DNA of 64,000 nucleotides from Chloroflexia bacterium (GTDB taxonomy: Bacteria > Chloroflexota > Chloroflexia > QHBQ01 > JADMIH01): the NCBI GenBank assembly GCA_038203825.1, contig JBBRDO010000007.1, positions 5,356 through 69,355 of the forward strand. Direction: 5' to 3'. Under the pieces are notes generated by a model. The model was not told the origin of the DNA. It saw only the letters and a list, made by a program, of their open reading frames with translations, and ran no database searches. Each line of letters starts with the position of its first letter. Position 1 is the stretch's first letter. Both the position numbers and the translations under genes were made by a program. Below are positions 24,064 through 58,489 of this stretch, piece after piece.

Positions 24064-26157
24064 TTAGGCGTTCGCTTCTTCTCTATGCTTGCGCGCGGTC
24101 TCGATCACTTTGTCGGCCACGTGCGCAGGCACCTGGTCATAGTGGTCGAATTCCATGGAAAAGACGCCGCGCCCCTGAGTTACTGACCTCAAGTCACTCA
24201 CGTAGCGCTGCACTTCGGCGAGCGGGGCCTGGGCCTCGACGACAGTGAAGCCGTTGCCCTGTGGGTTCATACCCAGCACGCGGCCACGGCGGCTGTTCAG
24301 GTCGGACATGATATCTCCGGTGTAGTGGTCGGGGACTGTTATGTGCAGATTCATTATGGGCTCGAGGAGGACCGGCTTGCCCATTTGCATACCTTCTCGG
24401 AACGCCTGCGAGGAGGCCAACTTGAACGCCATTTCCGAACTGTCGACAGGGTGGAAGCTCCCATCGTATAACGTGGCTTTCACGCTGACGACGGGATAGC
24501 CCGCAAGCACGCCCTCGTGCAGCGTTTCACGGATGCCCTTTTCAACCGCAGGGATGAAGTTCCTGGGGACGACGCCTCCGACCACGCGCTCGCCAAACTC
24601 GAACTCTCCTTCATTCAGCGGTTCCAGTTCCAGCACGACATCAGCGAACTGGCCGTGACCACCGGTCTGCTTTTTGTGCCTGTAGTGGGCGCGGTCGACA
24701 CGCGAGGTGATGGTTTCCTTATAGGGCACGACCGGTAGACCAACTATCACGTCCACGCCAAACTTGCGCTTCATGCGTTCGGCTGCTATCTGCACGTGGC
24801 TCTCACCCATGGCGGAAAGGATGGTTTGTCCTGAGGAGGGGTCCTTGCCGGCTTGCATGGTGGCGTCTTCCTCCAGGATATTTTGGAGGGCAGCGCCCAT
24901 CTTGTCCATGTCGGCCTTGGTCTTTGGCGCGATGGAGGCCGAGAAGAGTGGCTGCGGGAACTTTATCGGGTCGAGCAAGATAGGGTGGCCCGGCTCGCAT
25001 AACGTGTCGCCAGTTTTGGTTTCGGCCAGTTTTACGACCACACCTATATCGCCCGGTACAAGCTGTTGAACAGGCACCTGCTCTTTCCCATGGGGAACGT
25101 AGACCTGGCCGATGCGCTCTTCCATGTTGTGGGTCGAATTGAGCACATGGCTGTCCGAGTGGAACGTACCTGAGTAGACTCGCAGGTAGCTTTGCTTGCC
25201 AAACTGATCGCGAATCGTTTTGAATACCAGAGCCGCGAGTGGGGAAGCATCAGTTGGCTCTAAAGTAATCTTCTTGCCATCTGCGATACTTGTTGCCTCG
25301 ACGGCACCCGTGTCGAGTGGCGAGGGCGCATACTTACTCAGGAAATCGAGCAACTGCGTCACGCCGATGTTCAACAAGCCCGAAGAACAGAGCACCGGCG
25401 CGATCTGCCCGGAGAGGACGGCCCGGCAGAGGGCGTTATCCAGGGCCTCGACGGGAACCTCTTCGCCTTCGAGAAATAGCATGGTGAGGTCGTCATCCGT
25501 CTCGCAGATACGCTCGACGAGCCAATCACGACCTTCCTTTGCGTCCTGTACCCATTCATCGGGTATAGGGCCCTCGGTGAACTTGCCCGACGTGCCGCTT
25601 TCGTAGATGTATGCTTTCTGGTGCAGCAGGTCTATGACTCCGCGGAAGGTGGTCTGGGAACCTATCGACAACTGTAGCGGTGCGCACTTCTTGCCAAGCA
25701 CATCCTGTATGGAATGGAATGCGTTCTTGTAATCGGCATTTTCGCGATCAAGCTTGTTGATCACGACCACGCGCGGCAGATTCCGCGCATCGGCCATGCG
25801 CCATGCCTGTTCGGTGCCGACCTCTACGCCCGCAGAGGCGTCTACCAGCAGCAAGGCAGTGTCCACAACGCGCATACCTGCTACCTCTTCGCCGGAAAAC
25901 TCGGCATAGCCCGGCGTGTCCAGCATGTTGATCTTTTCGTCTCCCCACTCTACGGGCGCAATCGTGAGCTGGATAGAAATGTGGCGCTTGATCTCGTCGG
26001 GATCGTGGTCTGAAATCGTGTTACCTTCATCGACGCGCCCAAGGCGGGTGATTGCTTTAGAGGTGAAAAGCATGGCTTCGAGCAAGGATGTCTTGCCTGC
26101 GCCTCCATGAGAGAAAAGACCAACGTTGCGGATCTGAGCGGTGTTGTACTGTTTCAT
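24064..26157 (-). CDS. elongation factor G family protein (EF-G paralog)
   Basis: All five EF-G domains. Divergent P-loop SHGGAGKTS instead of AHIDAGKTT. Confidence 0.8.
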   Translation of the reverse strand: MKQYNTAQIRNVGLFSHGGAGKTSLLEAMLFTSKAITRLGRVDEGNTISDHDPDEIKRHISIQLTIAPVEWGDEKINMLDTPGYAEFSGEEVAGMRVVDTALLLVDASAGVEVGTEQAWRMADARNLPRVVVINKLDRENADYKNAFHSIQDVLGKKCAPLQLSIGSQTTFRGVIDLLHQKAYIYESGTSGKFTEGPIPDEWVQDAKEGRDWLVERICETDDDLTMLFLEGEEVPVEALDNALCRAVLSGQIAPVLCSSGLLNIGVTQLLDFLSKYAPSPLDTGAVEATSIADGKKITLEPTDASPLAALVFKTIRDQFGKQSYLRVYSGTFHSDSHVLNSTHNMEERIGQVYVPHGKEQVPVQQLVPGDIGVVVKLAETKTGDTLCEPGHPILLDPIKFPQPLFSASIAPKTKADMDKMGAALQNILEEDATMQAGKDPSSGQTILSAMGESHVQIAAERMKRKFGVDVIVGLPVVPYKETITSRVDRAHYRHKKQTGGHGQFADVVLELEPLNEGEFEFGERVVGGVVPRNFIPAVEKGIRETLHEGVLAGYPVVSVKATLYDGSFHPVDSSEMAFKLASSQAFREGMQMGKPVLLEPIMNLHITVPDHYTGDIMSDLNSRRGRVLGMNPQGNGFTVVEAQAPLAEVQRYVSDLRSVTQGRGVFSMEFDHYDQVPAHVADKVIETARKHREEANA

Positions 26158-27153: not shown

Positions 27154-28242
27154 ATGCTAGAAGACAAGTTAGACACAATCGAACAACGATATTCGTACCT
27201 GGAGGAGGCGATGTCCCAGCCGGACGTTGCCAGCGACTTGCAGCGACTAATAGAACTGGGCAAGGAGCGTTCCGACCTGGAAGACCTTGTAACACTTTAT
27301 CGCGGCTACAAGGAAACCAACCGCGAACTGGCCGAAACCGAGTCGTTGATAGGGCAGGAAGACTCGGACCCCGAAATGGCCGAGATGGCCCGGGCCGAGA
27401 TCGAAACTCTGAAGGCCAAGCAGAATGAACAAATGGAAGCTATCAAGCAGCTTCTGCTTCCTAAAGACCCCAATGACGACAAGAATGTTATTATCGAGAT
27501 CCGTGCGGGGGCGGGGGGCGATGAAGCAGCCCTGTTTGCGAACCTGCTTTTCGGCATGTACGAGAAATACGCCGAGAAACGTCGGTGGAAGACCGAAGTG
27601 CTGTCGAGCAACGTGAACGACATCGGCGGCCTGAAAGAGATCATCTTCGAGGTCAAGGGCACAGGCGCATACAGCCAGTTCAAGTACGAAAGCGGCGTAC
27701 ATCGCGTGCAGCGCGTGCCGGTGACGGAGTCGCAGGGGCGCATACATACCTCGACCGCAACAGTAGCTGTGATGCCCGAGGCTGAGGAAGTTGACGTTGC
27801 CATACGCGACGACGACCTGAAGATAGATGTTTACCGCTCGGGTGGGCATGGCGGGCAGAGCGTGAACACGACAGACTCGGCCGTGCGAATTACGCACTTG
27901 CCGACGGGCATCGTTGTTACGTGCCAGGACGAGCGCAGCCAGCTCAAGAACAGGATCAAGGCGATGACGGTATTGCGCACCCGCCTATACGAACTGGAAC
28001 TTGAGCGCCGCCAGAAAGAAATGGGCGACGAGCGACGCTCGCAGGTGGGCACAGGCGACCGCTCGGAGAAGATTCGAACTTACAATTTCCCCGATGACCG
28101 TGTCACCGACCACCGCATCAAGCTCACCGTTTCGAGCGTGCCGCGCGTTCTCGAAGGCGACCTGGACAACATCATCCAGACCCTCCGCCTGACCGACCAG
28201 GCCGAACGCCTCAAGCAAGAGGGCATAGACGCGCGCGATTAG
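27154..28242 (+). CDS. prfA: peptide chain release factor 1
   Basis: GGQ motif (GGQSVNTT) and the RF1-specific PVT tripeptide. Confidence 0.9.
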
Positions 28243-46542: not shown

Positions 46543-47244
46543 TTATCGGTTCTTGCTATAAGCCAGCCGCCTGCGCGCCCAGGACTTCAGGCCCGCGGCC
46601 AATTCCGGTATTTCCAGGAATTCAGGCGCACGGTTGCGTTCCGTGTCGTAGATATCGACCACGTCGCGCAGTGTCATTCCGTGGGCGGGACGATGCACTA
46701 TGCGAACCTCGTCGCCGGCGCCGACTACGCCTTCACGAATAATCCGCAGGTAGGCGCCGGGCCTGCGGGCCGCACGGAATAGGTCGGGAAAATGTGGATC
46801 GTTCATCCTCGCGCCCAACTTCCAGCAGGGGAATCGCGGCTGAGCTACTTCGAAGAGCGCATCGCCGATCTCCCAACGCTCGCCAATCAGGGAGCACGAC
46901 ACGTCTATACTCTCCAGGGTCAGATTCTCACCAAACGCAGCAGGCCCAAGTGAGCGTCCAAGTTGGCCTTCCCACCAGGTGGTGTCCTCGCTCGCATAGG
47001 CATAGACGGCTTTGTCTGAGCCGCCGTGCACCTCGCGGTCTGCCTGGTCGTCGCCGTCCAAGTTCACCCCACGCACCATGACTCGTCCCTCGACAGGCGA
47101 CTTCCAGATAGAGGTCGTCTCGGTCCGGCCAAGCCACTCAATAATACGCGGGCGGCCCACATTCACCGAGAGCACGCGCCCCGATTGACTTTCACTCATC
47201 TTCGCTGACATCCTGCACGATCTTGCGTTTGCCCCTGGTATCAC
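46543..47244 (-). CDS. MOSC domain-containing protein
   Basis: MOSC beta-barrel motifs. Start ambiguous between GTG 47244 and ATG 47211/47199. Overlaps the ligase 3' end. Confidence 0.7.
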   Translation of the reverse strand: MIPGANARSCRMSAKMSESQSGRVLSVNVGRPRIIEWLGRTETTSIWKSPVEGRVMVRGVNLDGDDQADREVHGGSDKAVYAYASEDTTWWEGQLGRSLGPAAFGENLTLESIDVSCSLIGERWEIGDALFEVAQPRFPCWKLGARMNDPHFPDLFRAARRPGAYLRIIREGVVGAGDEVRIVHRPAHGMTLRDVVDIYDTERNRAPEFLEIPELAAGLKSWARRRLAYSKNR

Positions 47245-49003
47245 CCTTGCCCTGCATGTTGTACAGTTCGATTATCTCGTCAACACTGGTAGCGTCCTCG
47301 GGGCCGCGCTCGGGGCGCTCCTTAACTATACGCGGGAAGCGCAAGGCGTAGCCGGCTCCATCGGCCGTCTTCCCTGCAGGGTGCATCTGGGAGCGGGTGA
47401 GCTCGTCGGCCTGTAATTCCAGAACGTAACGCGGCACGACCCAAAAGTCGGGCGTAAGCACACTCACAACCCTGGGGTCCTTATGATCGATCTTGTCGGC
47501 AAGTAGCCTTCTGCCCAACTCCTGAAATGCCTCTTCTGAGAGGCCGCTTGCTACTTTAGTGACTGTAGGAAAGGTATCGTTGGCCTTGTCGTATACGGAG
47601 ACCAGCATCGTGCCGATTCCCCACGATGCCCGTCGCCCCTTGCCATAAGAGTAGCCTACGATGACGCAATCGACTGTATCGCTCATCTGCATGTTATAGG
47701 AGCGCTTCATCTTTATCCAGTTGTAGCCGCGCTTGCCTGCATCATAGACGCCACTCAATCGCTTGGCGACAATCCCCTCGTAGCCTTCCACCAGGCTGTC
47801 CTCGTAGAACAACACGATCTGCTCGGGGTCTTCAGTAATGAGCGCGGGCGATGGGTGCAGGCCGCCCAGGCCTTCACGAGGCGCAATTGCCTTGTAAAGC
47901 TCTTCGCGCCGCTCTATATAAGGACTGCGCGTGAGGTCGCGCCCGTCAATGAACAACAGGTCAAAGGCCATCAGGCTTATGGGCAGGGTTTCGCTCATTT
48001 CGGCTATGTTGTGAACACGTCGCCGCTGCGAGGTTACCTGGAAAGGCTGAATTGCGCCTGTTGAGGGGTCGTAGGCCAGGGCTTCGCCTTCGAGGATTAC
48101 CTGGGCTGAACTTATTTGCCTGTGAATGGCTTCGACCAGATCAGGAAACATACCGCTCATGTCCTCGAGGCCACGCGAGAACATACTGACCTTCTCGCCG
48201 TCCTTATGCACCTGTATCCTGAACCCGTCGTACTTGGGCTCAATTGCGCATTCTCCCAGGCGAGCCACGATCTCGTCGGCGCTGTCAGCACGTTCTGCAA
48301 GTGCCATGCGGACGGGATTGCCTACCTTCACGTGTATGTCGTCCAGGCCCTCAGGCCCCATGGTGTAGAGAGTATGCGCCACCAGGCCCAGGTCGCTCGA
48401 CAGATTGTAGGCGCGCTGGAGCGCCACTCTGAGGGACTTGTCCCCCGCCTTGGCCAGCGACAACGCATCCAGCAGAGTGGGGTCGCCCACTCCAACGCGC
48501 AACCGGCCAACGACTATGCGGGCGACATGCTTGGCCTCCAGCGGGGAGAGGCGCCTGAAGAGGACTGCGAGTTGAGTTACCTTGCCTTCCTGGCTGCCTG
48601 ACCCGATGGTTTCGGTGATCTTCATGAGCTGGCTGTAGACGTCCTGCAATGTAATCGGCTCAATATTGGCCGGGGCCATGGGGTTATCGGCCTCCCATTT
48701 CGCGGCGTATTCCTGGGCCACCAGTCCGGCGTCACCCAACTGCTTCGACCGCGCCAACACATCATCGTATGTCGCGCCGTAGGCCTGCGTAACCGACCTG
48801 TAAATCAGGCGCTCGTTCATGCCGAACTCTTTCTGTATGAAGTCGGGCAAGAGCCGGCCCTGGCTCAAATAAAGCAGTTCCGCGATGTCGTCCGGCTCGG
48901 CCTGCCTGAGCATTTCGGCAAGCATGGAGATCATTTGTGTGCGCCCGGATATCGGTTCAAGGGCTTCTAGGGTTTCAGCCAGGGTGCTGAAAGGCATGGG
49001 CAT
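47192..49003 (-). CDS. ATP-dependent DNA ligase (Lig I/archaeal-type: DBD + adenylation + OB)
   Basis: KYDGFR adenylation motif I and full three-domain architecture. Start at ATG 49003 with a TGGAG RBS. Confidence 0.8.
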   Translation of the reverse strand: MPMPFSTLAETLEALEPISGRTQMISMLAEMLRQAEPDDIAELLYLSQGRLLPDFIQKEFGMNERLIYRSVTQAYGATYDDVLARSKQLGDAGLVAQEYAAKWEADNPMAPANIEPITLQDVYSQLMKITETIGSGSQEGKVTQLAVLFRRLSPLEAKHVARIVVGRLRVGVGDPTLLDALSLAKAGDKSLRVALQRAYNLSSDLGLVAHTLYTMGPEGLDDIHVKVGNPVRMALAERADSADEIVARLGECAIEPKYDGFRIQVHKDGEKVSMFSRGLEDMSGMFPDLVEAIHRQISSAQVILEGEALAYDPSTGAIQPFQVTSQRRRVHNIAEMSETLPISLMAFDLLFIDGRDLTRSPYIERREELYKAIAPREGLGGLHPSPALITEDPEQIVLFYEDSLVEGYEGIVAKRLSGVYDAGKRGYNWIKMKRSYNMQMSDTVDCVIVGYSYGKGRRASWGIGTMLVSVYDKANDTFPTVTKVASGLSEEAFQELGRRLLADKIDHKDPRVVSVLTPDFWVVPRYVLELQADELTRSQMHPAGKTADGAGYALRFPRIVKERPERGPEDATSVDEIIELYNMQGKGDTRGKRKIVQDVSEDE

Positions 49004-49336
49004 CGCTGTACTCCAATCTGTATTCTGCGTTTCAAATTGACGCCATGAAATTATAGCATAGCAGGTAGAGGCGTGGGGAAGCACAGGGGAGGACCCCTGC
49101 ACCTCCTCTTTGAGTGGGGAGGCCAGGAGGAAAGGGGCCAGGGGACACTCCTGGGATCCCGCTAGGGCGGGCCGCTGTACCTGCTCGTTAGTTGGTGGCG
49201 GCTTTGATGTTGCGGCTTGTTCATACCACGCTTATAATCGTAGCGCAGCGTTACGCGGCTAAGTTTCATGTGATGCTCCCAACCCTCCGCGAACGTTGGG
49301 CTTCCGGATCAATTCTCCAGACTGGACTTTGCTACT

Positions 49337-51229
49337 ATGTACGTCCTCGGAACCGCCGGGCATGTTGACCACGGCAAATCGACTCTCGTCAGGGCTATTA
49401 CGGGAATTGATCCCGACCGCCTTCAGGAAGAGAAGGCGCGCGAGATGACCATTGATCTTGGCTTTGCGTGGCTCACTCTTCCCTCCGGCAAAGAGGTGTC
49501 CATTGTAGACGTGCCCGGACACGAGCGATTTATCAAGAACATGCTTGCCGGGGCGGGCGGGCTCGATGCCGCGCTGCTCGTTATCGCGGCCGATGAAGGG
49601 CCCATGCCCCAGACCGAGGAGCATCTCGACATCCTGCACCTGCTGGGGGTGGATCGCGGAATCGTGGTGCTGACGAAGACGGATATGGTGGACGAGGACT
49701 GGCTCGAACTGGTAGAGGAAGAGATCCGTGACCGGCTGAAGAATACAACGCTGCAAAACGCTCCGATTGTGCCTGTCTCGGCTCGCACGGGGCAGAACCT
49801 GCCAGGATTACTTGCTGCTATCGACCGCTTGCTGGACGGAACGCAGCCGCGTGCCGATCGCGGTGCGCCTCGCCTCCCTATTGACCGCGCGTTCACGATT
49901 GCCGGGTTCGGTACGGTGGTAACAGGCACCCTGATTGACGGCAGCCTGCACGTTGGCCAGGAGGTTGAGATCGTGCCCGGCGGCCTGAAAACTCGTATCA
50001 GGGGCATCCAGAGCCACAAGCACAAGGTAGAGATTATCCAGCCCGGCAACCGCGTGGCGGTCAATCTGGTGGGACTGGACGTGGACCAGATCCGGCGCGG
50101 CATGGTGCTCGCGCTGCCTGGCAAGCTACAGCCTACCAACCGAGTAGACGTCCACTTACACCTCCTGTCTGATGCTCCGGCGCCCCTTGACCAGAACGAC
50201 TCGCTGGATATCTTCACGGGGTCAGCGGAAAGCCCGGCACGGATCACCTTGCTCGACACCGACAGATTGCAGCCCGGCGACAGCGCCTGGGCGCAATTAC
50301 GCCTGCGCGACGAGGTTGCCCTTTTGAAGGGTGACAGATACATCGTGCGACGCCCGTCGCCCAGCCTGACGGTGGGAGGAGGGCAGGTCATTGATCCGCA
50401 CCCCAGGCGGCACAAGCGCTTCAACGAGGAGACGGTCAGCACGCTGGAAACTTTGCAAAAAGGAACGCCGGAGGAACTGATCCTGCAGGCCCTTGGTATG
50501 GCGGCATTAGACGCCAAGGCGGTCATCGATAAGTCAGCACTGGAGAAGGTGGATGCCGAGCGAGCGATACAAGCGCTGCTCGATGATAAGAAGCTGTTGC
50601 TCCTGATGGGAGATGCCCAGACAATCATGCGTAACCCGCAGTCAGTGATACTGATGGCGGAGGACGCGTTTCAAGATACGATGCGCCGAGTGCACAATCT
50701 GCTAGCTATTTTCCACAAGCAACAACCATTGCGGCGCGGCATGAGCAAGGAAGAACTGCGCAGCAGGATGTCGTCGACCATATCGGCAAGAGCGTTTCCT
50801 CATGTCATGGCTCGGGCGGTTGAAAGAGGGGCAATCGCAGAGGGAGCTACGATTTATCGCACGCCTGAGCACGAGCCGAGGTACAGCCCCGCGCAAGAGA
50901 GGCAAGTAGCTGCTTTGCGCAGCGCCTACGCTAAGAGTCCATACTCACCGCCGTCGCCCACCGAGCTAGGGGTAGAGCCGGACGTGCTGGCAGCTCTCGT
51001 AGAAAGCGGAGATCTGATGAAGCTAGACGAGAGCATCTACTACACACGCGCCACGCTTGACGAAATACGCGAACGCATACTGGGCACAATTGACGAGCAC
51101 GGTGACATTAACGTGGCGCTCATGCGCGACGTCTTCGGCACAACGCGCAAATACGCCATACCGTTGCTGGAGTATTTCGATAACCAAAAGATCACACGCC
51201 GGGTCGGCGACGTGCGGGTACGCTGGTAA
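49337..51229 (+). CDS. selB: selenocysteine-specific translation elongation factor SelB
   Basis: GTAGHVDHGKSTL, DVPGHERFIKNMLAG and NKTD-like TKTD motifs. 630 aa with C-terminal winged-helix domains (IPLLEYFDNQKITRRVGDVR), as in E. coli SelB. Confidence 0.85.
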   Translation: MYVLGTAGHVDHGKSTLVRAITGIDPDRLQEEKAREMTIDLGFAWLTLPSGKEVSIVDVPGHERFIKNMLAGAGGLDAALLVIAADEGPMPQTEEHLDILHLLGVDRGIVVLTKTDMVDEDWLELVEEEIRDRLKNTTLQNAPIVPVSARTGQNLPGLLAAIDRLLDGTQPRADRGAPRLPIDRAFTIAGFGTVVTGTLIDGSLHVGQEVEIVPGGLKTRIRGIQSHKHKVEIIQPGNRVAVNLVGLDVDQIRRGMVLALPGKLQPTNRVDVHLHLLSDAPAPLDQNDSLDIFTGSAESPARITLLDTDRLQPGDSAWAQLRLRDEVALLKGDRYIVRRPSPSLTVGGGQVIDPHPRRHKRFNEETVSTLETLQKGTPEELILQALGMAALDAKAVIDKSALEKVDAERAIQALLDDKKLLLLMGDAQTIMRNPQSVILMAEDAFQDTMRRVHNLLAIFHKQQPLRRGMSKEELRSRMSSTISARAFPHVMARAVERGAIAEGATIYRTPEHEPRYSPAQERQVAALRSAYAKSPYSPPSPTELGVEPDVLAALVESGDLMKLDESIYYTRATLDEIRERILGTIDEHGDINVALMRDVFGTTRKYAIPLLEYFDNQKITRRVGDVRVRW

Positions 51230-52192: not shown

Positions 52193-52293
52193 CTCGTCCG
52201 CTGTTGACACTACAGGCACAATCCGCTACACTAGAAGTAGCAGTCGCCCTTACCGTTAGATGATCATGCCTCCAGAAAGAGGTACTTATAACT

Positions 52294-53139
52294 ATGAGTG
52301 ATACGACCATTTCCACGTCCAAGACACCCAATCAACCTGTCGACGACTATGATGATGTCGAGGAGCCGGTGTACACGCCGGCGGCTCCTGTTCAGGCTCG
52401 CCCGAGCAGAGTGCAGAGCCGATACGAGGACGACGAGGTTGATGAGTTAGACGAAGACGTCCCGGGCTACAGCCGAGGATTCCGCAGTGACGCAGGCGAA
52501 TACGACGAGGATGGAGAAGAAGTTGCGGTTTTATCGGTAAACCGGAGTCGTGCTCTCATTTTGACTTTCTCGGTCGTTATGCTGGTGGCAATCTTCGGGC
52601 TGGCGTTCTGGTTATTCTTGAACCGAGCAGGCGATGCACCTCCGACCGGTCCCGTCGCGGGCGTGCCTGTAATTACCGGCTTTGACGCTGATACCCAGAA
52701 GGAAGATCAGAAGCCGCAAACGGGCGCATACGCACCCGACTTTACCTGGCAGGAGAACGGCCAAGCCGTCTCTCTCTCCTCTTTCCGAGGGAAAAAGCCA
52801 GTTTTCGTGAACTTCTGGGGAACGTGGTGTCCACCTTGCCGGGGTGAAATGCCGGAAATGGAGACGGCGTATACCAAGCACTTCGGGAAGATCGAGGTCA
52901 TAGGAGTGTCAATGGCCCCGAAGGACACGGCAAGCATGGTGCTAAATTTTGTCAACCAGTATAAGTACAATTGGAAGTTTATCCATGACGGCGACTTCCG
53001 AGTGGCCGACCGCTATCAGGTGGCTGCTGTTCCCAGCTCCTACTTTATTGGCACAGACGGCATTATCAAGGCCGTACAGGTAGGAGCCATGAACGGAACG
53101 ATTATGGAGAACTATATCAACCAGGTCATCACACCCTAA
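52294..53139 (+). CDS. TlpA/ResA-like thiol:disulfide oxidoreductase (membrane-anchored)
   Basis: Acidic disordered N-terminus, one TM, thioredoxin fold with WCPPC (CxxC). Confidence 0.75.
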   Translation: MSDTTISTSKTPNQPVDDYDDVEEPVYTPAAPVQARPSRVQSRYEDDEVDELDEDVPGYSRGFRSDAGEYDEDGEEVAVLSVNRSRALILTFSVVMLVAIFGLAFWLFLNRAGDAPPTGPVAGVPVITGFDADTQKEDQKPQTGAYAPDFTWQENGQAVSLSSFRGKKPVFVNFWGTWCPPCRGEMPEMETAYTKHFGKIEVIGVSMAPKDTASMVLNFVNQYKYNWKFIHDGDFRVADRYQVAAVPSSYFIGTDGIIKAVQVGAMNGTIMENYINQVITP

Positions 53140-53156: not shown

Positions 53157-53855
53157 ATGAGCCAACCCCCACAACGTCCATCTGCTAACAGGCCGCCGGC
53201 TCGTTCTAGCGGCCCCCCGCCCCCACGCAGAGGCACCTACAACGAGAGACCACGAGCAGTACAAACCCAGCGCGATCCGTTCCCCTATATCATGGGCGGT
53301 ATCATCGGGGCCATGATCATTGGCCTCGGCGCGGTGCTTTTCCTTATTCTGTCGAACAACAACGGTCCCACGCCCGCTAACACTAACACCGTCTCACCTA
53401 CGGCAGATGCAAACACCCCACCTCGCATGGCGATCGGCGAGTTCAAGGCGTTGTACGACGACCCGGCCAAACGCCCGCTCATTGTTGATGTAAGGCCCGT
53501 TGCCAGCTACGCCGAAGGCCATATCGGAGGGTCGGTGTCGATGCCCGAGACCGATATTGATAAACTGGTAGCCGACAAGCAGGTGCCGAAAGACAAGCTG
53601 ATCGTGGCGTACTGCCAATGACCGGCCGAAAACGAAAGCGCCCGTGTGGCGCAGAAGCTGCATGATACATATGGCTACAGTTACGATAATTTGAAGGTCC
53701 TTCAAGGCGGTTGGAATACCTGGAAACAGATGAACGGGACAGATCCCAAAGGATACCCTATCGAGACAGGGAACAACGGAACTCCCGTTATTGATAACGC
53801 AAAGAGCGATACAGGCTCCCAACCTACGGCTACAAAAGCGGTAGCCACACCTTAA
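53157..53855 (+). CDS. membrane-anchored rhodanese-domain sulfurtransferase with in-frame TGA (candidate selenoprotein or pseudogene)
   Basis: Pro/Arg-rich N-terminus, TM, rhodanese domain. ...LIVAYCQ-TGA(53619-53621)-PAENESARVAQKL...LQGGWNTW continues in frame to TAA 53855. Hairpin GCGCC-cgtgt-GGCGC 16 nt downstream of the TGA. Confidence 0.55.
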
Positions 53856-53886: not shown

Positions 53887-53919
53887 AATCAGGGCGGGAT
53901 CCGGAAACCCGCCCTGATT
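53887..53919 (+). terminator. rho-independent terminator after the rhodanese gene
   Basis: AATCAGGGCGGG-atccggaaa-CCCGCCCTGATT, a perfect 12-bp stem followed by TTCTAT. Confidence 0.6.
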
Positions 53920-53937
53920 TCTATGGGGCGGTAACAG

Positions 53938-54390
53938 ATGAGCGATCAACGGGGCGGAACGAGACGTGTCAGGCGGGTGCTGCCGCCGCAAGAGGGTGCA
54001 AATCCACCCCAACCGCGCGCAGGCCAGGGCATGGCCCGCATGCCGATACGCGACGATCGTTCAGTGCCCATCCGCAGGGCGGAAGTCGGGCAAGCGACAG
54101 CGCCGCCGCGCAACGATCTGTACCAGTACATCATAGGTGCGGTGGTATCGGCTACGGTGCTGGGGCTGATCCTCATAATTTGGCTGGTCGCAACGTCCGG
54201 AAAAGGCGTTGCGAATCCTGCCCCGGGTACGAACACGGTTTCCGGCGATGTGCCGACCATACAGGCTCCCCTCTCATCAGGTACGCTGGTACCGGGCGAA
54301 GTACCAACAAGCAACCTGGTGGTGCCACCTGCCCAACCGAGCCGGGGACCGTCCGGGGAGAATTGGAACCTTCTGCTTGATACGCGCTGA
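53938..54390 (+). CDS. hypothetical membrane-anchored protein (paralog of the rhodanese anchor module)
   Basis: Arg/Pro-rich N-terminus, TM, then a short Pro-rich ectodomain. Its N-terminal ~100 aa align with the rhodanese anchor (R.D...YI.G.....LGL...TNTVS). Confidence 0.5.
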   Translation: MSDQRGGTRRVRRVLPPQEGANPPQPRAGQGMARMPIRDDRSVPIRRAEVGQATAPPRNDLYQYIIGAVVSATVLGLILIIWLVATSGKGVANPAPGTNTVSGDVPTIQAPLSSGTLVPGEVPTSNLVVPPAQPSRGPSGENWNLLLDTR

Positions 54391-58099: not shown

Positions 58100-58489
58100 A
58101 TGAGCGAAAAACAGACCGGTGCGGGGGACGGCACAGGAGACAGGCTTGAAGCGTTCCGACAGTATCGTTTGCGTATGAACGAGAGAATTGCAAACGCAAA
58201 CCACCTGGGCATCAATCGTTTTTTCAACCTGGACACGACGGCCTATTACGACGGCGCGCTGCCGGGCCGCACTAAAGAATTGCTTGGGTTGGTGGCCTCC
58301 GCAGTACTGCGCTGCGATGACTGCGTGGACTATCACCTCATACAGTGTGTCGAAGCAGGATACACCAACGAGGAGATAACGGACGCGCTCAACGTGGCGC
58401 TGGTAGTAGGCGGAAGCATATTGATCCCGCACCTCCGCCACGCTATGGAAACGATAGATCTGTTGAGGGCGGAAGAAGAAGGTCAGTAG
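58100..58489 (+). CDS. carboxymuconolactone decarboxylase (AhpD-like) family protein
   Basis: AhpD-like CDDCVDYH (CxxC...H) motif. GGAGG RBS before ATG 58100. Confidence 0.75.
   Translation: MSEKQTGAGDGTGDRLEAFRQYRLRMNERIANANHLGINRFFNLDTTAYYDGALPGRTKELLGLVASAVLRCDDCVDYHLIQCVEAGYTNEEITDALNVALVVGGSILIPHLRHAMETIDLLRAEEEGQ

Follow-up and report, generated by a model that had tools for sequence, protein, structure and literature searches.

Comparative evidence for selenocysteine at an in-frame UGA in a membrane-anchored rhodanese gene of Chloroflexia

We analyzed a 64,000-nucleotide stretch of DNA from an uncultured Chloroflexia bacterium (GenBank assembly GCA_038203825.1, contig JBBRDO010000007.1, positions 5,356 to 69,355; hereafter the window, with positions counted from its first letter), in which a gene for a rhodanese-domain protein on the forward strand (53157-53855) contains an in-frame TGA at 53619-53621. 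The interpretation of this UGA as a selenocysteine (Sec) codon, and not as a stop, is strongly supported by comparison of related sequences. We consider it very likely that the codon is recoded with the help of a selenocysteine insertion sequence (SECIS) hairpin, and that the product is a membrane-anchored rhodanese with a Cys-x-Sec (CxU) motif; we infer that its Cys and Sec would act as a redox or sulfur-transfer pair on the outer face of the membrane together with a TlpA-like partner.

The gene has 232 codons, from the ATG at 53157 to a TAA at 53853-53855, and the TGA, codon 155, is the sole interruption of what is otherwise a single rhodanese-domain gene. The protein reads ...KDKLIVAYC-Q before the TGA and PAENESARVAQKLHDTYGYSYDNLKVLQGGWNTW after it, and in translation the post-TGA frame runs PAENESARVAQKL...LKVLQGGWNTW. 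A match to the Pfam rhodanese family (PF00581, E 3.8e-15) runs from residue 95 to residue 191 (53439-53729) and so includes residue 155. Cys153 (TGC, 53613-53615) stands where rhodaneses canonically have their catalytic Cys, at the point where the central strand (..IVAYC) ends, and the active-site loop begins with Cys153-Gln-Sec155 (AYC-Q-U-PAENESARVA). The MSQxPR N-terminus is kept among homologues. In SRR19962010, a Logan contig of 11 kb matches the window. The original prediction, made from the letters of this DNA, had noted a TGA inside one rhodanese domain, with KLIVAYCQ upstream and ARVAQKL downstream in the same frame, a C-Q-U motif in the catalytic loop, a 5-bp GC hairpin 16 nt 3' of the TGA, a selB gene 2.4 kb upstream, and an atypical loop without the conserved Gly or Arg; all of these sequence-level observations were confirmed.

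The Sec assignment is supported by the conservation of the codon itself. A homologue search over 5.8 billion proteins returned 92 homologues, and for 79 loci taken from one-genome-per-species contigs we read the codon directly in the DNA; a second search covered 1.8 billion cluster representatives. About 88 of the 92 homologues stop exactly at ...AYCQ, or in a few cases at AYCA or AYCS, so gene callers halted at the same codon everywhere. This codon is TGA in 45/45 Chloroflexia loci and in 21 further loci from Acidobacteriota (Pyrinomonadaceae, Blastocatellia, Vicinamibacteria and Thermoanaerobaculia), Dehalococcoidia, Ktedonobacterales, Nitrolancea and Methylomirabilia, that is, in 66/66 related loci of the CxU group (67/67 with the window) from at least five phylum- or class-level lineages. 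As a pattern in sequences, this conservation is far beyond chance. The original prediction had called for an alignment of orthologs at this position, and alongside the 66 TGA loci that alignment contains five homologues with Cys: an Anaerolineae homologue (L060) carrying TGC at the Sec position (AYCECPHAE), and four more Cys (CxC) forms from the cluster-representative search (P0097, P0119, P0148 and P0207), of which P0097 is 58% identical and reads YCHCPNEEESARVAQ. One Arg form and one Ser form were also among the cluster-representative matches. Public gene calls break the gene into an N-terminal 'Rhodanese' ending at AYCQ and a separate leftover ORF (open reading frame) of 45-70 residues (P0001-P0092; L081-L087). 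Two full-length JGI calls have Trp at the Sec position followed by PAENESARVAQKLH, the signature of TGA translated under genetic code 4.

The part of the gene beyond the TGA evolves like the part before it. Nei-Gojobori counts over 46 Chloroflexia sequences gave proportions of synonymous (pS) and nonsynonymous (pN) differences of 0.695 and 0.262 for the 45 codons 5' of the TGA (pN/pS 0.377), and of 0.758 and 0.283 for codons +11 to +42 on the 3' side (pN/pS 0.373). The equal ratios indicate that the post-TGA part is translated and selected like the pre-TGA part, and in the 66 loci the frame past the TGA is open and conserved, reaching a conserved C-terminus. The immediate surroundings of the UGA (53616-53622) are constrained as well, with CAA as the preceding Gln codon in 41 of 42 cases and C as the following base in 61 of 67. 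Scanning the window for further in-frame TGAs near Cys, Ser or Gly motifs returned, besides 53619, only shadow-frame or gene-junction artefacts.

A candidate bacterial SECIS core lies at 53638-53652 on the forward strand, starting 16 nt after the TGA. It consists of a 5-bp stem (GCGCC/GGCGC) closing a CGUGU loop, over the codons for Ser-Ala-Arg-Val-Ala. When the 67 sequences from the UGA to +57 were folded jointly with RNAalifold, a single consensus helix was obtained, pairing alignment columns 20-24 with 30-34, which correspond to 53638-53642 and 53648-53652 of the window. Pairing is retained nearly everywhere in these sequences: the stem shows 15 one-sided changes, all wobble-compatible, and one double change, a swap of G-C to C-G in one sequence, while only the outermost pair is ever broken (7 sequences). 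The hairpin codons are almost frozen at the nucleotide level (AGC 96%, GCC 100%, CGT 98%, GTG 100%, GCG 100%). Codon choice is freer at other conserved residues: three codons serve the invariant Ala at position -4 relative to the UGA, and five or six serve the conserved Leu positions. Over the five hairpin codons pS is 0.010, compared with 0.70-0.76 in the flanking sequence; this drop within five codons is a clean case of an RNA structure that would freeze synonymous sites inside a coding region. The SECIS constraint would also fix five residues, Ser-Ala-Arg-Val-Ala, in the opening part of the helix that follows the active-site loop. The hairpin 15-mer occurs once in the window, and the hairpin is absent from L060, the only Cys homologue whose DNA was read.

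The hairpin also agrees with the published bacterial SECIS (bSECIS) model, which specifies an upper stem of 4-16 bp, an apical loop of 3-9 nt with a G at loop position 1 or 2 (commonly with a U after it), a UGA-to-loop distance of 16-37 nt and a minimum free energy of at most -7.5 kcal/mol (PMC13188914, Fig. 2 legend). The stem of 5 bp, the loop of 5 nt with G-U at loop positions 2-3, the UGA-to-loop spacing of 21 nt and the energy of -9.1 kcal/mol in context are all within these limits. Changes at the loop-closing positions give A-U or G-C, which the model permits for its N1/N2 pair. The proposal that this hairpin is a SECIS thus agrees with both the model and the consensus of 67 sequences. 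We rejected a 9-bp extension of the helix (columns 17-19/35-37 and 25/29) as a general feature, since its cells were paired in 60.7% of cases against 60.5% after shuffling; it does form in some Acidobacteriota sequences. Rfam searches of the window at the gathering threshold, and of 53560-53720 at E<=10, gave no SECIS or tRNA-Sec family, a result of little weight, as Rfam has no fitting general model of the bacterial SECIS.

The translational machinery is partly represented in the window. An intact selB gene for the Sec-specific elongation factor (630 residues, 49337-51229, forward strand) ends 2.39 kb upstream of the TGA, as the original prediction had it; the protein scores 361.6 bits against TIGR00475 (cut-off 242.25) and contains the Pfam domains GTP_EFTU, Beta-barrel_SelB, SelB-wing_2 and SelB-wing_3. 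We know of no role for an intact, conserved selB besides Sec insertion. The order selB-SDR-tlpA-like-rhodanese was found in 8 Chloroflexia loci. No selA or selD was found among the 30 window ORFs scanned, ARAGORN scans of the window and of 46 related loci gave no tRNA-Sec, and none of the three was found in the flanks of related loci.

Three explanations that dispense with a Sec-containing main product have to be weighed against these data. The original prediction itself named a fresh pseudogene, in which a single nonsense mutation would have inactivated an ordinary rhodanese gene and left its 3' part untranslated. An in-frame TGA is formally a stop, and gene callers do end the ORF at 53621, but the same TGA stands in 66 other loci across several phyla, pN/pS is 0.37 downstream as it is upstream, and the frame remains open to the conserved C-terminus; TGA conservation and equal selection together exclude a pseudogene, and we give it practically no weight. 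The same negligible weight falls to a reassigned genetic code (code 4 or 25), under which every TGA would be read as Trp or Gly and the residue would not be Sec. A Trp does appear at this position in the public calls P0004, P0005, P0106 and P0193, but TGA is the stop of 16 of the 50 long window ORFs, including those for DNA ligase, MgtE and Nramp, the tRNA-Trp of related contigs has the anticodon CCA, and true sense-codon homologues carry Cys, not Trp or Gly. The use of TGA as an ordinary stop, the CCA anticodon and the aligned Cys exclude reassignment, and SelB is present and a frozen hairpin would be superfluous under such a code. In the remaining explanation, termination is regulated: the 154-residue anchored fragment would be the main functional product, with minor read-through when selenium is available. 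Sec insertion is generally inefficient in bacteria, and the base after the UGA is C in 61/67 sequences, a leaky termination context. The fragment would, however, end in mid-fold directly after the central strand, lacking two helices and one strand of the predicted structure, and purifying selection on the C-terminal part is as strong as on the part before the TGA. Because termination would cut the fold at that point, we hold a functional truncated product to be unlikely and regard regulated termination as improbable, although less so than the pseudogene or the reassigned code.

With the TGA read as Sec, the anatomy of the protein is as follows. The N-terminal tail has eight Arg in 46 residues and is followed by a transmembrane (TM) helix at residues 47-65 (53295-53351, GGIIGAMIIGLGAVLFLIL; Kyte-Doolittle 19-residue mean 2.54), a low-complexity Asn/Thr/Pro linker and the rhodanese domain. 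Among 77 homologues, the 15 residues before the TM segment contain on average 2.56 Lys plus Arg, compared with 0.52 behind it, a charge bias that predicts an N-in, C-out orientation. The rhodanese domain would then probably face the outside of the cytoplasmic membrane. Members in other phyla have signal-peptide-like or lipoprotein-like N-termini. In other architectures the CxU domain, with the same UGA and hairpin, is C-terminal on cation/proton antiporter-like membrane proteins of about 530 residues and on a protease-like protein, and it ends other proteins of 500-1100 residues that stop at AYCQ; these cases comprise L055, L062 and L073 (Dehalococcoidia, Chloroflexota and Nitrolancea), L079 (Methylomirabilia), P0127, P0134, P0144, P0146, P0149 and P0200.

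For the fold we ran AlphaFold2 on the homologue P0004, which is 62% identical and has Trp at the Sec position. The model has a domain pLDDT of about 90 and a helix at the TM position. Its central strand ends at the Cys, followed by the short loop Q-U-P-A and by a helix beginning ENESARVAQ, whose starting Glu lies five residues beyond the Cys. Cys153 is invariant in 67/67 sequences and aligns with the active-site Cys of BH2092 (3o3w), the best match in the Protein Data Bank (PDB) both in the sequence comparison (E 1.5e-8) and in the fold comparison (target-normalised TM-score 0.72-0.74). The best PDB matches are plain single-domain rhodaneses, none of which has a CxC or CxU motif, and no such structure has been solved. 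The loop C-Q-U-P-A-E-N-E-S is acidic, has neither Arg nor Gly and departs from the six-residue CX5[R/S/T] pattern, whose basic or small residues surround the persulfide; this atypical character, noted in the original prediction, speaks against a classical thiosulfate sulfurtransferase site.

Directly upstream of the rhodanese gene, with a gap of 17 nt to its start, lies a gene on the same strand (52294-53139) for a TlpA/ResA-like thiol:disulfide oxidoreductase of 281 residues, matching Pfam AhpC-TSA, Redoxin and Thioredoxin_8. Its features are an acidic N-tail, a single TM helix at residues 87-105 and the active-site motif WCPPC, and it scores 111 bits against NCBIfam ResA, whose cut-off is 170. 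Of the 37 Chloroflexia loci with enough flank, 22 have a TlpA-like gene as the immediate upstream neighbour in the same orientation, and the adjacency persists where the other neighbours are unrelated. A promoter-like site (TTGACA-17-TACACT, 52204-52232, forward strand), which agrees with the consensus at 10 of 12 positions and is weak as evidence, precedes the TlpA-like gene. Downstream of the rhodanese gene, at 53890-53922 on the same strand, a strong, GC-rich 9-bp hairpin read from the sequence (CAGGGCGGG, a 9-nt loop, CCCGCCCTG, then ATTTCT) is a probable intrinsic terminator; our pattern scan did not return it because its loop exceeds 8 nt and its T-run is short. Together, the promoter-like site and this hairpin suggest a probable two-gene operon.

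These elements suggest how the protein might be made and might work. By the established bacterial mechanism, a complex of SelB, GTP and Sec-tRNA would bind the hairpin at 53638-53652, the UGA would be recoded to Sec, and translation would run on to the TAA at 53853 to give a 232-residue product. The Arg-rich tail and the single TM helix would anchor this product N-in and C-out, placing the rhodanese domain outside. There, Cys153 and Sec155 may serve as a redox or sulfur-transfer pair, either by forming a selenenylsulfide or by Sec resolving a persulfide on the Cys, and the probably co-transcribed, membrane-anchored TlpA/ResA-like protein with its CxxC motif could return the pair to the reduced state. 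Sulfane sulfur and thiosulfate are candidate substrates, as are oxyanions such as selenite and arsenate.

A more conservative account of the same protein accepts Sec but takes the enzyme to be a conventional sulfurtransferase, in which Cys153 would carry the persulfide and Sec155 would only tune it, with no link to TlpA and perhaps a cytoplasmic location. Cys153 does hold the canonical place of the catalytic residue, a TlpA-like neighbour is missing in many paralogues and in every non-Chloroflexia member, and the antiporter-like C-terminal fusions leave the membrane side ambiguous. Against this stand the loop, in which the CX5R signature, rich in Arg and Gly, that marks active thiosulfate sulfurtransferases is missing, the TlpA-like gene adjacent in 22/37 loci with unrelated contexts included, and the charge bias that places the domain outside, as would the signal-peptide-like or lipoprotein-like N-termini in other phyla. 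We judge the conventional account to be possible, though rather unlikely. With similar reserve we put forward a bolder proposal, that the CxU rhodanese and its TlpA-like neighbour might be an undescribed two-gene extracytoplasmic Cys/Sec redox module and the principal client of the Sec machinery, with the UGA and SECIS forming a portable 'Sec cassette'. The module would concern an uncultured soil Chloroflexia lineage with up to five Sec paralogues per genome, in which selB is linked to a client gene and not to selA. The cassette, lying within the domain and nearly identical in its nucleotides across phyla, would have spread together with the domain into TM-anchored, lipoprotein-like, and antiporter-like or protease-like fusion architectures.

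Several observations weigh against Sec recoding with an outer-face redox pair and a TlpA-like partner. On the side of the machinery, selA, selD and tRNA-Sec were not found within the 64-kb window. On the side of the RNA, the window sequence taken by itself is not thermodynamically remarkable (region z-score -0.04), the conserved hairpin has an ensemble probability of only 0.17 in it, and the minimum free energy fold prefers a competing helix at 53643-53664 that is more stable and not conserved; the significance of the hairpin therefore rests on the comparative data. True compensatory covariation is minimal, being limited to the one double change. This weakness follows from a nearly invariant stem; codon usage is the stronger argument. 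As to the partner, 15 of the 37 Chloroflexia copies and all 21 non-Chloroflexia loci have no adjacent TlpA-like gene, which implies that the partner is not obligatory for the domain, and no CcdA or DsbD was found in the window. Finally, the best NCBIfam match of the window protein, NF041203 (rhodanese_LYCAU, 'rhodanese-related (seleno)protein'), aligned over profile positions 12-120 of 126, falls short of the equivalog cut-off of 115 bits, scoring 67.8 when U is replaced by C. NF041203 is also the best NCBIfam match of relatives from five other lineages, at 78-90 bits and likewise below 115. The window protein is thus best described as belonging to a related clade and not as an equivalog member. 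With these points counted, a Sec-containing rhodanese, as the original prediction proposed, is still favored by a TGA kept across lineages, Cys at the aligned site, equal selection on both sides and a frozen hairpin.

Several further features of these genomes and of the window were noted. Several metagenome-assembled genomes (MAGs) carry two to five Sec paralogues: JBBQIC01 has five (L013, L020, L030, L032 and L044), and JALYYZ01 and JBBSAN01 have three copies each. In such MAGs the TlpA-like neighbour lies beside only some of the copies. Paralogues without TlpA (L085 and L086) lie among unrelated housekeeping genes that give no functional hint. Just downstream of the putative terminator, a 150-residue ORF (53938-54390, forward strand) anchored in the style of the rhodanese, with an Arg-rich N-tail, the segment 'DLYQYIIGAV...', a TM helix and a Pro-rich tail ends in a TGA stop; it is conserved only in L001 and L006 and had no Pfam or NCBIfam match. 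An ATP-dependent DNA ligase gene (47192-49102, reverse strand) adjoins selB divergently, and the window also contains genes for EF-G (24064-26157, reverse strand) and RF1 (prfA, 27154-28242, forward strand), the latter followed by prmC. Some CMD/AhpD-type families have Sec forms. We considered the CMD/AhpD-like gene at 58100-58489 (forward strand, 129 residues) as a second selenoprotein and rejected it, as it has an ordinary CxxC and is a Cys form.

Rhodanese selenoproteins have been reported since 2005 (PMC1088965), a UxU variant is present in Olavius symbionts (PMC1976440), and a 2026 review distinguishes five rhodanese selenoprotein forms, of which form 3, with the motif CxU, corresponds to NF041203 and is credited to the bSECISearch paper (PMC13188914). 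The window protein shares with form 3 the rhodanese fold and a Sec two residues after a retained catalytic Cys (C-x-U). Form 3 was reportedly first described with bSECISearch by Zhang & Gladyshev in 2005. In place of LYCAU the window protein reads AYCQU-PAENESA, and its clade differs from NF041203 in the Arg-rich tail, the TM anchor, the low-complexity linker, the TlpA-like partner and, in 8 loci, a nearby selB.

A parallel to a Sec rhodanese working with a thioredoxin-like protein is TsoB, a rhodanese/DsbD fusion-like selenoprotein (NF045694, form 5, UxxxxU), in which a Sec rhodanese domain is joined to modules for thiol:disulfide electron transfer. Weak matches to different parts of TsoB (residues 15-169 and 455-493) come from the rhodanese and from its TlpA-like neighbour, at 24 and 20 bits, far below the cut-off of 805. 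Compared with TsoB, the window has two separate genes and no DsbD membrane domain, and the rhodanese has a single domain, one TM helix, one Sec and another Sec motif. The matches may be taken as modest Rosetta-stone support for coupling of a Sec rhodanese to a thiol:disulfide relay.

Forms 1, 2 and 4 (UxxS/UxxG), named 'rhodanese-related sulfurtransferase' in surveys of the Sargasso Sea and of Olavius symbionts, are likewise single-domain rhodaneses that contain Sec and have a SECIS immediately 3' of it (PMC1088965, PMC1976440). In these forms Sec replaces the catalytic Cys, whereas the window protein keeps the Cys and has an extra Sec at +2; within this group the Olavius UxU variant is nearest in motif. 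GlpE, PspE and BH2092 (3o3w/3nhv) share the alpha/beta rhodanese fold and a catalytic Cys ending the central strand, but have no Sec and a CX5[R/S/T] loop (C-W-G-P-A-C in BH2092, against C-Q-U-P-A-E-N-E-S in the window protein). PspE is also extracytoplasmic. The TlpA-like protein resembles TlpA, ResA and CcmG in being a membrane-anchored thioredoxin fold with WCxxC, with ResA as its best NCBIfam match, and differs from them in its long acidic N-tail and in pairing with a rhodanese selenoprotein and not with cytochrome c maturation genes.

The gene points to the use of selenocysteine by an uncultured soil Chloroflexia lineage. It is also of value for annotation, in that public calls break it systematically: about 88 of 92 homologues are cut short at the UGA, and a few have Trp written for the codon. 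CxU rhodaneses have been listed for two decades without a known function, and this clade adds leads in a likely extracytoplasmic location, a TlpA/ResA-type partner and linkage to selB. Current knowledge is not overturned by these results: the CxU rhodanese selenoprotein class has been catalogued since 2005, and by its sequence the protein described here represents a related, TM-anchored Chloroflexia clade, a well-supported addition to that class.

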